Assembly: GCA_964016885.1 (NCBI GenBank)
Contig: OZ024741.1
Coordinates: 64,790,001 to 64,854,000, forward strand
Direction of reading: 5' to 3'
Origin: Eledone cirrhosa
Taxonomy: Eukaryota
DNA: 64,000 nt
The stretch's first letter is position 1; the number at the start of each line of letters is the position of its first letter. Both the position numbers and the translations under genes were made by a program. Below the pieces are notes generated by a model. It worked only from the letters and a program-made list of their open reading frames with translations, did not search any database and was not told the DNA's origin. Below are positions 29,123 to 62,265 of the stretch, in pieces.

Positions 29123-29216
29123 AGCATATCTGACGATCTTTCGATTAGAGAGTCAGGTTCCATCTATAATAGGTCTTTCCTCGAGCTGATCGATAGAGAA
29201 ACATGTGTAATATGTT
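29123..29216 (+). ncRNA. Type I hammerhead ribozyme motif, intact core, long loop II
   Basis: Stem I AGCATAT/ATATGTT; CTGACGA 29130-36; stem II TCT-T-TCGATTAG / CTGATCGA-T-AGA; GAAA 29198-201; stem III CATGTG; cleavage after GUA at 29209. Confidence 0.8.
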
Positions 29217-30879
29217 ATTATGCAACACTGAATCCTTGTTCCTTTATTCTTATAGTGTGTGTATGTATATATATATATAGTTATATTGGAGTTTACTAAT
29301 ATGGATCCTGGTAAAGATGACAGAAGCTCTATGCTAATCGGTTTCCTTGATCCAGCAGTAATCCAATAAGGCTGAGGAAACACTCAGCTGTCGTAGATCC
29401 AGCTATAGATTGTTAGGCCACGGGCTGCAGAGCTCACAAATACATATATATACGTGTGTATGTATTTGTAACTATCTTTATATATATACTGTATAATGTC
29501 ATTGATTACCATACGTTCTATAAACCCATCTTGTAGCATTTTGCAATTCTGAATGGAACCTGATGGCAATAAAAAGAACTATCATTGTCATTATTATTTA
29601 AGAATCAAGTACTGGGTTGATTTAATCAACTTCGCCCTTACTCCAAATTTGCTGGCCTTGTGCCTAAATTGGAAATCGTTTTTAAATAAAGATTTATCGC
29701 TACTTCCATAAAGTGTATACGGTAAAAATACTATTCACTCTTTATTATAAGGGAGATTGGTAAAGCAACATTTACGTGCAAATAATTACAATAACGTTTA
29801 TGACTAGAATCTGAATCATATTTATAGCTAAAAAAAAATAAGCATGTTTGATATCCATATTATATTTCGTTACGACTAATTTTATTTTTCATTCATGCTT
29901 TGTTGTCTATCTCTCAATATAATGTTTACAACCGTTGCGGAAAATCCTACATTCATTCATATAAAGATTAATGAAATTCAGTTAACGTTACCACAAATTT
30001 TATGCCTTGATAGAATGACAATAAATTATGAATGTAGTTGATTTAACGAATACTCTTGTAACAGCGTAGTTTGCGCGTATGCACACACACTTTTGCCTAC
30101 AGGCAACGTCTGTCGCTTGAATGTCAAGCTGGTTGAGTAGAATACCGCCAAATGCCTACTTCACACTTACATAATAATTTCATCAGCCGCCATCGTACTT
30201 TGCTTCAAGTTCTTTCGTCTCTACCACCTTTTCTACTCGATTTCTCCCATCATCAAGCGATTTCTTTATGTCACCTCTCGAATTATTGTGAAGCATGTAA
30301 GAATCTAAAGAAGTAAATTAAAAACCTACTAGAAGTATTTTTCTTCCAAGCATCTGAAGGATGAAAGGCAAAGTTGACCTAGGCGAGATTTGAACTCAAC
30401 GTATAGAGCCAAATACTGCAGAGCATTACTCTAACTACTCTGAAAATTCACCGCCCTTTAATGGTAATAATTTCTAGTCTTGACGCAAGATCAACAATTT
30501 GTGGTGAGGGGGAATGTCGAAAGTAACTGGTACTTTATTTTATCGACTCCAAAAGGATTGAAAGTCAAAGTTGACCTCAAAACATAGTAAGTCTTCATTA
30601 AATGATGCAAAGCATTTTGTCCAGCACTACAATACAATGGCAGAAGGAAGCGTTTGTGACTTTTATAGATCTCCCTCCCACAATGGGATTGGTATCGATG
30701 TGGTTGAACTTCTGTAGGTAGACATTTGCAGGGGAAAATATGGATTAGAGATAATTCTAGAAAGCTGTCGATTGTTCACTTAAATTCTAACATGTTTTGT
30801 GCCGTAAGGCAGAAGAGAAGACACTTTTTTTCTTTCTGAAAAACGCCTAACATCGCTATCCAGTGATGCGGTCAGGACG

Positions 30880-31060
30880 ATGTGAGGGAGCCCATGTGCA
30901 AGCTGCCTCGTGATCCCTGTGGACAGAATGGAAAAAACGTTGCCCCATTCCAACTCGCAGGATTACTGCGGGTGGTCAGCTCCACTCTGATAGCAATATG
31001 TAGCGATGTGGTCCGGGGGCCCAAGAACATCGGAAGTCTCCACTGCTACAAGTTCGACCA
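30880..31060 (-). mobile_element. Older fragment of the same CRE-like element
   Basis: Shares ggacagaatgga, tccaactcgc and gaagtctccactgc with 33210-33375. Confidence 0.65.
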
Positions 31061-31164
31061 CATGCGCGTGTATGTATATGTGAAAGGTAAACAGAAATAA
31101 CAAAGCAAATGACACAGTATAACGAAGAAATATATTAGTTTCATGCTTAAAATAATAGGATAGG

Positions 31165-31500
31165 AAAAGTGTCTTAACGTTTCGGATACTAGTCCTTCAT
31201 CATAAGATAAAATGAGAAGTAAATTAGAAATAAAAGATGAAATGAAAAGATAGAGAGAGAAAAAAGGAAGGAACGGGAAAAAATTAAAAATCAAACAAAC
31301 AAAATGAAAATATGTACGTATTCAGTCAGTCATATGTTCGTTGAAAGGTGAGGGTGAGAAACAGAATACTTGTTCAGTGAGTGTATTGATTCGAGACGGT
31401 ATGGGATACCCGTAGCTGGTTCAGAAGAACAGAGAGTAGAAATAGTGTTTAGTCAGTGATTGTAGCTTGTTGTTCTCTATTAACATAGCTTTAGATATGT
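31165..31500 (-). mobile_element. Penelope-like element 3' remnant with a decayed minimal hammerhead
   Basis: Minus strand tctt-ATGATGA-AGGActagtaTCC-GAAAC-GTT-aaga at 31207-31172. It follows a degenerate segment resembling the end of a GIY-YIG ORF (SLF..., EQ..F...TFNE). Confidence 0.5.
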
Positions 31501-59025: not shown

Positions 59026-59214
59026 CATTAAGTTTTATTAGCTGAAGGCTTGTTTTAATAAAATTTACAAACCTGTTGAACTTGGTCAGACCGATTAGAC
59101 CTGGTATGTGACTTCTAGAACTGTAGAAGTTTTCATCAAGTCATTAGGCCTTGAGGAAAACCTCTAGGCCTTAATTTTAATTTCTCGTGATTTTACATGT
59201 TCGGTTTAGACAAA

Positions 59215-60830
59215 TGGATATCTAGATTTAAAAAAAAAAATACAAACTTATCAGAAACAAGGGTGAACACAAATATGCTCGTAGCTATCTGAAGTTTAGT
59301 TTTATTGAATCTACTAGCTATTCACTAGAGTATCTGAAATTTAGTTTTATTGAATCTACTAGCTATTCACTAGAGTATCTGAAATTTAGTTTTATTGAAT
59401 CTACTAGCTATTCACTAGAGTATCTGAAATTTAGTTTTATTGAATCTATTAGCTATTCATCCCAGTATGTGAAGTTTGGTTTTATTGAATCTATTGGCAA
59501 TAAACGACTTCCATTGTGCTTACTGTATCGAAAGACATTTTAAACAGTGCTGGAGTCCAGTTAATTACGAGACCAACTTGTTTCAAAACATCCATTTAAG
59601 AGACGAACCCATTGACTATTTTCAAAACTGTACGAAAGGTTAAAAAAAAGTGTTTTACAATAACTTCATTAAAAACAACAAAAAAAGTTAAAAATAAAAC
59701 GAAAATGGTTTAACAGTAGCTGAGCAAATATCATAACTGATAGCAAAAAAGGTATAAAAGTCATAGGTTTGGGGAAAGTTTATTATCTTCTATCAAATAA
59801 TTTATCACAACGGTAATACATTAGGGCACAACTAAAGCTATAACTCAGTAAAGCGAAGCAAACACAAAACTGCGGTTAACATAGAAATAAAAACTTGCAG
59901 CTAACCCGCCATACAAAAGTTTCTTTGCAATTGGACGAGTCTATATGGCGTATGTGTGGTATTGTTAGAAAAAATGTTATCTACTGTAGATCTAGTTACA
60001 AACACAAATGGTTTATCAATATTCACTGCCGTGAAATCATATTTTACTAAAAATAATATACACACGAACTATATTGTCGCATGTGTACTGACAGAGTACC
60101 AGCAATGGTAGGTTACTATCAGTTTTGTTGTCTATTCATTGTAATGCATACACAACACCTTGTTAGAAACCACTTGAGTGAAAGTCTTCATAAATCATTA
60201 TGTATAATAATATCTTTTTTTTTTAATTGGTAGACGATTCTACAGCTTCAAGGAGTTAGTATGTATTAACTGCTGATGGAGTCGTAGGGACGCCAAAGTG
60301 ACATACGACGTTTCTTGAGCAGTTAAGCACAACCGATTTCTTCCAGAGAAGGAGAGAGAGAGAGAGTATGAGAAAAAGATATAGAGGAAGAATCGCAACC
60401 TGTCGGAGAACGACCGATATCTGGAAAGTTGCTGTTTCCTTATTCAGTGACAAGCTTAATCTATTCTGTAATATTCTGAAGAGGAAGTTTCATCAATGTT
60501 TAGAATTGTGTTCAATTGAAGATGATATAACTGCTAAAGTTCAGTTATCTGAATTAACTTAAATTAGGCATGCCAGAAAGAACTTTTACAACTCAAAGGC
60601 AAAGATAACTTTAATAGTGGTGTGTACCCCAAAAATGTCTGCTTTATATTCAACTCTGTGGAAAATTATTTCTAATTTATTGCTACTTGTACCGACTTCA
60701 TATTTTGTGGAATCCGGATTTTATCACAAATCAGAAATTGTTTGAAAAGAGGAGACTTTCATTTGTTCTTAAAAATCTAACCGAATATAAAAAGTAAATT
60801 TCTCGGTATCAGGCCCAAAGATTTCGTTAA
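59215..60830 (+). pseudogene. Decayed hAT Buster/Charlie-type transposase
   Basis: YLKF(S/G)FIES, PLCLL, EPIDYFQ, LQLDES, CTDRVPAMVG, IHC, PTSYFVESGF, KRGDF.LFL and QAQ in the expected order, with many stops and a SINE piece at about 60272-60370. Confidence 0.8.
59286..59495 (+). repeat. 45-bp tandem repeat, about 4.6 copies
   Basis: Unit tatctgaa(a/g)tttagttttattgaatctactagctattcactagag starts at 59286, 59331, 59376, 59421 and 59466. Confidence 0.95.
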
Positions 60831-62088
60831 ATAATGCTAGCATAATTTCAACTAATCTTGTTTATGCAGGGTTAGTGAATAATTTTAATATAATTTACTG
60901 TTTTGTGCAAAGAATGTAATTTTTCAAATTAAAATATAGGGAAAATTTTTACTATTACATCCGTCTCGGAGACAAATTACCAAATATAGTGGATGGGACG
61001 AAAGTTTTAGCATTAGAAAAGTGGGCGATGGTTATAAACATGTTGACGAACGTTGCGTTAGGGTGTAAATTGGCTGCTATTTCTAACAGACGGTAACCCA
61101 CAACCATTATATATGTTTCTTTTGTCATGATATAGAAGGTCGATATTAATACCAGTATCTCAATAGAAGTGAAACTGGCTTTAACAGGAGAGAATATATT
61201 CGAACTGCGGTGAGCTGCCCATTTGCTTCACGGCTATAATTGATAGTAAATTGAATGACTTAAAGAAGAAAACCAATTATCGCAAGGAAAAGGATTTCTC
61301 GTACCCTTTGTATTGATTCTTTCAATGTAAAGGGACATTTAATTTGACGCTAGTTAACATATTGAAACTCGTCATCCTAAATATTTTATAACGTATGAGA
61401 TTTCTTGGAATGTACGTTTTTTGTCATGTATAAATGTTTTTTAATGCCCAAAGAAAATTAATTATCGCAAGAATGCTACTATTTAAAATAAAATTTCGCC
61501 GGAGATTAGCAAAGTTTAATAAGCGGGAGGGGGGCGATTATTCGATACCCGAGAGTACATATACACTCTTGATTCATGCATTCGGCACCGTTGTGTACAG
61601 TCAACAGGTGCTGCCATACATAGGCCTTGAAATCTAATGTAGTGTAATACATATTACGTGTATGAATCATATAATAGCTCCCTTGCACTAGATAGAACAT
61701 TTTCGCTACATACGCATACATGCACACACACATATACACACATGTCATGCGCTCGATTCATATATATATATAATGTCATGGGTTCGATTCCTAGGTTGGG
61801 TTGCGTGTTATGTTCCTGAGCAAATCATTTCATTTGACGTTGCTCCAGTACGCTCAGCTGAAAATCAGAACCAGCAATTGCTGCAGGTTTAACTCTGCGA
61901 TGGACTGGCGTCTTGTCCAGGGGGAAGTCGTGTACTCTCAGTCGCTTGACGCCATGAAACCGGGATAAGCAAAGGATTAATGAGCCTTACGACAGATTTT
62001 ATACTTTATATATATATATATATATATATATATATATATATATATATATATATATATATATATATATATATATATATATAAAGATATA

Positions 62089-62265
62089 CGATATTAATAA
62101 ATGGAAACTATATTTATAAAACCATATTTATTTATTATACATATTTCAGGGATACCAAATTAAGTTATGGTATGCTTTCATCAGACAAAATACAATATAT
62201 AACAGTTTTACAAATGAGCTTTGACGTACCCTTTTAAAATGCGACCATTATTTTTGGAAGCCATC
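62089..62265 (-). mobile_element. Dispersed copy of one arm of the 46.6-kb palindrome, including its hammerhead
   Basis: Matches 46585-46762 with 4 differences counted by eye. Confidence 0.9.

Follow-up and report, generated by a model that had tools for sequence, protein, structure and literature searches.

The 64-kb window analysed here (64,000 nucleotides of Eledone cirrhosa, contig OZ024741.1, 64,790,001 to 64,854,000; positions below count from its first letter) carries dispersed type I hammerhead ribozyme motifs in which the fourth base pair of stem II is a pyrimidine·pyrimidine (Y·Y) mismatch. We assign these motifs with high confidence to the pseudo-long terminal repeats (pLTRs) of Hydra-clade Penelope-like elements (PLEs), and we find it probable that the pair-4 mismatch is under selection. 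Both the host element and the design for acting as dimers had been described before; for the fixed pair-4 mismatch we found no earlier description in the literature covered.

We applied a strict structural test to the window, combining CUGANGA, GAAA, a 6-nt palindromic loop III, a stem I of at least 4 bp, and paired stem II positions 2, 3, 5, and 6. Five cores came through it, at 29130+, 39027+, 46846+, 46681-, and 55550-, and 200 block-wise shuffles of the window gave none. The same five copies have the CUGANGA and GAAA core, the UH site, and the three stems with stem I open that define a type I hammerhead. In each of them, pair 4 of stem II is either C·C or U·U. Judging by their sequence, they are predicted to cleave themselves at the UH site. 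A preliminary description of the window, made from its letters, had listed type I cores. Those at 29130+, 39027+, 46846+ with its mirror 46681-, and 55550- are indeed intact, whereas those at 45949+, 57413+, and 62184- are damaged; the damaged copies still show C·C at pair 4. Its decayed core at 45112(+) had to be given up as a hammerhead, since TAAC, not GAAA, follows the TCT-T/T-AGA hairpin there, and the 211-base stretch had no genomic match other than itself. The 29130 family has 121 exact-pattern copies, and its pair 1 is usually U·U or C·U, the window copy with U-A being exceptional. In loci of the 55550 family, C·C was present in 18 of 20 motif matches, and one of the 20 is a truncated mis-parse.

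Scanning the 3.0-Gb genome, we found 53,408 occurrences of the pattern core-N20-42-GAAA-TATRTA-TA (control, 33). C stood at both pair-4 positions in 46,470 of these cores (87%; control, 0). G or C stood at both positions in 47,079, so that at most 609 copies (1.1%) can have G-C, C-G, or G·G. Further core and loop variants added 31,920 and 631 pattern matches (controls, 352 and 6), the mismatch being present in only some of them, and core-pattern matches overall number about 86,000 genome-wide. The comparison with Rfam hammerhead families that the preliminary description had named as a check gave no match in the window: none of 118 matches at E ≤ 5 was to a hammerhead family, and a search of 38980-39120 and 46800-46940 at E ≤ 10 likewise returned none. 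Very abundant hammerheads can thus escape Rfam models and descriptors that require a perfect stem II. Among viral contigs, 67 pattern matches were found and none came through the structure filter.

Stem II was compared across families in 202 loci of the same genome (1.37 Mb), which were selected around matches and are not a random sample. Excluding stem II below 16 nt and loop III below 4 nt ahead of clustering, we obtained 245 hammerheads with a stem II of at least 16 nt; 231 of them formed 23 clusters of at least two copies, and 14 singletons were dropped. The finder requires five of the first seven stem II pairs and favours no position. Scored by the majority pair, mismatches occurred in 12 clusters at pair 1, 12 at pair 4, three at pair 6, and none at pairs 2, 3, and 5. 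Thus, the impression gained from the window that pair 4 is mismatched far more often than its neighbours was borne out (12/23 clusters against 0/23 at pairs 2, 3, and 5). All 12 pair-4 mismatches are pyrimidine·pyrimidine (eight C·C, two C·U, one U·U, and one U·C). One two-member cluster was scored C-G by a tie with a truncated copy, and its full-length member has C·C.

Within the Y·Y clusters, pair 4 is paired in 0 of 194 copies, while pairs 2, 3, 5, and 6 are paired in 189, 189, 191, and 193, respectively, and all 29 recurrent haplotypes retain Y·Y. The flanking pairs covary in these clusters, pair 3 being G-C, U-A, or A-U and pair 6 being U-A, C-G, or G-C; pair 1 is A-U, G-U, G-C, U·U, C·A, or A·A. 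The loop III palindromes covary too (TATATA, TATGTA, TGCGCA, CATGTG, CGATCG, TGATCA, and others), so the earlier remark that loop III is fit for dimers holds across families. The stem II sequences had been called unrelated, and in this respect the preliminary description was wrong: other families can be aligned to the 45949 copy at 74-90%, and a C-R-Y / R-Y-C pattern at pairs 4-6 is common to most carriers. We also rejected the idea that C·C results from a register slip, which by eye is not conserved between families.

The loci around the hammerheads contain an open reading frame (ORF) for a reverse transcriptase-endonuclease. The linked element has a single ORF, with reverse transcriptase together with a GIY-YIG endonuclease at the C terminus, adjoining the hammerhead. 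For the family of the 46846, 46681, and 62184 copies, 13 loci place the hammerhead 1.3-1.9 kb behind the endonuclease end. At one locus (L053), the hammerhead of this family flanks the ORF as a direct repeat, and an inverted 5′-end copy is frequent in the family; inverted hammerhead pairs occur at L041-L043, and the stem II of 46846 is identical to that in the pLTR of the Hydra-type element at L041. Five further Y·Y families are linked to Hydra-type ORFs at 1-4 loci each, making six linked families in all. The 39027 and 45949 copies are tied to an ORF via sister families only; GGTCACAG is such a sister family of the 39027 copy, linked to a Hydra-type ORF. Proximity is an imperfect guide to linkage: isolated spurious links to nested insertions occur, and for the family GGAC a single 3′ ORF link (L050) stands in conflict with a single 5′ link (L057).

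The linked ORFs have RWK/RWR, DKT, YRDD, a CxCx5C linker, CxxC, and CxH motifs, by which the Hydra clade is defined (PMC8557442). RWK or RWR/RWV was present in all four ORFs reaching the N terminus, CxCx5C in eight of ten fragments, and DK[TS] in 97 of 120 homologs; GxKF/Y was not conserved, which is consistent with the Hydra definition. A Pfam search of two linked ORF pieces returned no family. In most copies, the distance from the predicted cut site to the terminal (TA)n is 43-57 or 133-200 nt. In the window, the short repeat holding the 29130 copy reaches its (TA)n end 56 nt past the predicted cut, and the ~160-nt repeat that includes the 39027 copy does so at 50 nt. Since copies end in (TA)n at these distances, the window copies are best read as 5′-truncated pLTR ends with homologous stems. 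The earlier attribution to type I hammerheads of PLEs thus stood, on the motif and on the links to Hydra-type ORFs. Weighing against it, the 29130, 55550, and 57413 window families have no clear protein link: a suitably placed PLE protein was absent from 29 related loci and one 3.9-kb direct repeat of the 29130 family, and 29 loci related to 55550 gave no unambiguous link. We rejected Naiad PLEs as hosts because the endonuclease of the linked ORFs is C-terminal, not N-terminal (a judgement on the linked families, not on 29130), and non-LTR retrozymes because the window hammerheads never stand in a tandem array, the copies being single or in inverted pairs.

The same loci yielded other elements. 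A different PLE-like reverse transcriptase, matching Pfam RVT_1 and read as Naiad-like, lies at L042:156-1820 (-) and has relatives at L079, L287, and L071. A young Hydra-type family with stop-free 784-codon frames forms 3.53-kb tandem arrays at L226 (G000:C1:437199000-437208900), L227, and L228, and most of its 63 matches have no stop. Its hammerhead combines a U3-A8 core (UUGAGAA) with a stem II of 54 nt and a near-palindromic loop III of 17 nt; both pair-4 positions are C, yet the best fold has a bulge instead. Short PLE-type hammerhead families, in which stem II measures 12-14 nt and which include one with a U3-A8 core, were seen at L069:3420, L048:2222, L004:1265, and L016:2135, and very long stem II (84-115 nt), with or without the pair-4 mismatch, at L078, L233, L054, L300, L275, and L076.

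Protein identity between the linked Y·Y families is 33-54%. We built trees with FastTree and a quick IQ-TREE run from database homologs and metagenome elements. In them, five of the linked families group as a single clade (SH-aLRT 97), and the sixth was placed among non-Y·Y families with weak support. The mismatch had been described as fixed across unrelated sequences; it is indeed kept over deeply diverged families, but these are not independent, the linked families belonging to one retrotransposon subclade. The closest named protein to this subclade is from Argonauta hians, and its closest outside relatives are P0001, P0002, P0003 from Argonauta hians, and P0005. Among metagenome loci with Hydra-type ORFs (78, from the best 80 of 371, with several near-duplicates), 50 yielded a hammerhead and none of these 50 had Y·Y at pair 4; in the trees these elements fall outside the subclade.

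Several of these results weigh against selection on the mismatch. Pair 4 is paired in 11 of the 23 clusters, and at least three such clusters adjoin Hydra-type ORFs (L059, L300, and L305; single links), so the mismatch is dispensable for the spread of the clade. The Y·Y clusters are defined by position 4, and fully repaired descendants would therefore be counted among the other 11. The five families in one clade make the clusters kin, and a single origin of the mismatch was not rejected (approximately unbiased test, p-AU 0.19). Transitions preserve Y·Y, and pairs 5 and 6 likewise show few transversions. It could then be that the mismatch is a tolerated, inherited accident of one origin, in which C-to-U transitions hold Y·Y without selection. 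Transitions are the commonest nucleotide changes, and the unrejected single origin and the 11 clusters without the mismatch would suit such an account. However, a single transversion on either side would pair position 4 (a gain of 3-7 kcal/mol), and this was seen in none of the 12 clusters and none of the 29 recurrent haplotypes. Pair 3 has meanwhile switched between G-C, A-U, and U-A while the proteins diverged down to 33% identity, and G-C or C-G stands at pair 4 in at most 1.1% of the 53,408 copies. We therefore consider the accident improbable.

We compared the motifs with published hammerheads, drawing on parts of each source. Hydra-clade PLEs (Craig et al. 2021, PMC8557442) are alike in the C-terminal GIY-YIG, the RWK-like, DKT, CxCx5C, CxxC, and CxH motifs, the (TA)n insertion, the inverted 5′-truncated copies, and a sense hammerhead near the 3′ end, whose loop III is palindromic and whose first stem II position is often U·U. 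They differ in that their stem II is a short hairpin with a loop of 3-10 nt, whereas stem II here spans 26-115 nt, and in that the elements are under 3 kb, whereas those here measure 3.5-3.7 kb with a 3′ untranslated part of 0.7-2 kb. By eye, none of the 26 Hydra rows in File S2 of that paper has an internal pair-4 Y·Y, unlike here; Penelope-17_HM has T and T at pair 4, but there they open the terminal loop. The minimal PLE hammerheads of Cervera and De la Peña (2014, PMC4209133) share the type I form, the pLTR, a long helix II, the palindromic helix III with a dimer model, and very many single truncated copies. Their consensus places an unpaired base behind A9 and pairs G10.1 with C11.1, and neither feature is present here. 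Among 56 rows of their Figure S3, inspected by eye, pair 4 is U·U in one (Clonorchis 2, which is non-Hydra) and C·A in one (S. purpuratus 1), and the parts of the text covered here make no comment on these two rows.

PLE hammerheads have been described as acting as dimers (PMC4209133, PMC6765202), and PMC6765202 and PMC6466107 describe the small PLE variants that Lünse, Weinberg and Breaker reported in 2017 as likewise cleaving as dimers, via a stem III that is short and palindromic. U·U at pair 1 (U10.1·U11.1) is known in hammerheads such as axolotl HHR_Amex2 (PMC3088659, PMC7229834); the stem II pyrimidine mismatch tolerated there corresponds to pair 1 here. The metazoan minimal PLE consensus was rejected as a class for our motifs, which do not match it, pair 1 of the Y·Y clusters varying widely. 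The canonical extended type I hammerhead, with its 4-bp stem II and a loop II-stem I or pseudoknot contact, was rejected as well, stem II being longer here and a pseudoknot appearing in 0 of 13 representatives. A literature search, outside which lay figures, Lünse 2017, and most of the Craig supplement, turned up no description of a fixed pair-4 mismatch. Thus, of the comparison with published PLE hammerheads proposed earlier, the dimer design and host element proved known, and the fixed mismatch was not among the Hydra rows compared.

Folding 13 representatives in silico, we find that pairing position 4 gains 3.1-6.7 kcal/mol in all 13. In 12 of them, pair 2 also becomes more probable (0.81-1.0, up from 0.17-0.98); pair 3 is broken in the thirteenth. 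In these models, the mismatch is predicted to leave a weak core-side helix of 2-3 bp, set apart from a stable distal hairpin. The loop III duplex is weakest in the most abundant Y·Y families (-2.2 to -3.2 kcal/mol, compared with -6.8 to -10.7 in nine non-Y·Y representatives).

Tentatively, we favour reading the Y·Y mismatch as a selected hinge that weakens the core-proximal helix, cutting being dependent on dimerisation and on the protein of the element. The palindromic loop III would join two hammerheads; as it is a covarying palindrome, two are most likely needed for cutting. Genomic copies extend past the cut site, which suggests that the template was uncut at that point when copied, and reverse transcription would begin 3′ of the cut site on such a template. 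The mismatch would keep the naked ribozyme weak. Later in the cycle, cutting may then be switched on by a protein that binds to, or just beside, the narrow Y·Y pair and the R-Y and Y-R pairs behind it. We favour the hinge because the core-side helix is predicted to be weak and because the Poseidon PLE hammerhead cleaves only with its protein, the uncut RNA serving as template (PMC11167929). The PAc element of Anolis, a Poseidon, resembles the present elements further in that its pLTR hammerhead lies upstream of two reverse-transcription starts, and two end distances past the cut are found here. By analogy, a protein-dependent role of the mismatch is plausible. That the position is fixed, that the mismatch is always Y·Y, and that R-Y and Y-R pairs stand behind it together suggest a recognised shape and not mere weakening.

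Some results argue against the hinge. Certain Y·Y families have a strong loop III duplex (-10 kcal/mol), and certain others a stable proximal helix (P ≥ 0.95). A plain brake would not require precisely pair 4. Moreover, the protein-assisted precedent is an analogy from another clade, such cleavage having been shown for PAc and being only presumed for the Hydra copies here.

As the main alternative, the Y·Y pair could be an activating tertiary feature, a narrowed helix II letting helix I dock and replacing the contact between loops I and II. In extended hammerheads, which have a loop II-stem I contact (PMC3088659), the two stems come together at roughly the height of pair 4, and the presence of all four Y·Y combinations fits a shape over base identity. 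Also, an A-U pair whose U lies on the 3′ strand occupies stem I position 7 in 9 of 13 Y·Y clusters at a threshold of 0.86 and in 6 of 11 at 0.70. However, a pseudoknot between loop II and the flank was found in 0 of 13 representatives (shuffle fractions 0.18-1.0), a C·U family and C·C families have an identical 8-bp stem I, and in some relatives both stem I and stem II are long and fully paired (L101). Covariation of the mismatch with stem I was not seen, and the substitute tertiary contact suggested in the preliminary description found no backing from pseudoknots or from stem I covariation. Overall, we regard such docking as somewhat unlikely.

The hairpin might instead be retained as a binding mark for the reverse transcriptase-endonuclease, in template choice or start-site positioning, with self-cleavage vestigial. 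Poseidon catalytic mutants were unimpaired for insertion in vitro, and RNA ends at the cut site were not observed for that element (PMC11167929); the copies here also retain sequence 3′ of the cut site. Against this, every cluster keeps the full catalytic core together with the UH site and a loop III palindrome that covaries, although the finder requires them and this concerns detected families only, and the U3-A8 core covaries in one family. Vestigial cleavage appears quite improbable.

Returning to the hinge, its most specific form is that the Y·Y pair makes up, with the two base pairs that follow it, a dedicated docking site through which the element's own reverse transcriptase-endonuclease activates the ribozyme, a site that arose in one Hydra subclade and multiplied to more than 46,000 copies. 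We think this unlikely as it stands. If it were true, these elements would hold a natural protein-gated hammerhead carrying a readable recognition mark. A fixed mismatch with changing flanks offers a one-base handle on whether and how a protein gates the ribozyme, and it bears on why PLEs retain slow hammerheads.

Table 1. Hammerhead copies and dispersed repeat copies in the window
Feature	Position	Strand	Pair 4	Predicted cut after	Details
Intact type I hammerhead	29122..29217	+	U·U	29209	61-nt stem II; loop III CATGTG
Intact hammerhead	39019..39080	+	C·C	39072	loop III TATATA
Damaged mirror of 45949 hammerhead (core at 45866-)	45809..45874	-			core CTGATAA; inverted repeat 45784-46032
Hammerhead with mutated core (45949 copy)	45941..46007	+	C·C		core CTGTTGA
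Intact hammerhead, inverted copy of 46846	46625..46689	-	C·C		inverted repeat 46577-46950
Intact hammerhead	46838..46902	+	C·C	46894	8-bp stem I; loop III TATGTA
Intact hammerhead	55475..55558	-	C·C		U·U pair 1; AUU cut site
Hammerhead remnant	57405..57486	+	C·C		stem I cannot form
Sibling of 46846	62128..62192	-	C·C		pair 2 broken (A·C)
~190-nt repeat, copy 1	4475-4652				
~190-nt repeat, copy 2	8657-8852				
~190-nt repeat, copy 3	24180-24377				
~190-nt repeat, copy 4	32168-32341				
~190-nt repeat, copy 5	32669-32867				
~190-nt repeat, copy 6	33989-34181				
~190-nt repeat, copy 7	43266-43456				
~190-nt repeat, copy 8	53279-53468				
~190-nt repeat, copy 9	56770-56967				
~190-nt repeat, copy 10	58880-59030				

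Near the hammerheads of the window, an AATAAA-like stretch lies at 39078-39084 and at 46899-46905, no more than ~12 nt 3′ of the cut site, as is typical of most families; it sits within or beside the 3′ strand of stem I. An inverted repeat at 55696-55959 shows an unusual succession of GAAA, a GUC site, and a CUGAAGA core. At 19190 (+), there is a shortened copy from another hammerhead family with loop III GAAC, a fuller copy of which lies at L311:4050.

Elsewhere in the window, the ~190-nt dispersed repeat has at least ten copies with 86-98% identity, and its size is like that of a short interspersed nuclear element. A 541-codon frame at 1390-3015 (-) shows, by eye, reverse transcriptase motifs of the long interspersed nuclear element type.

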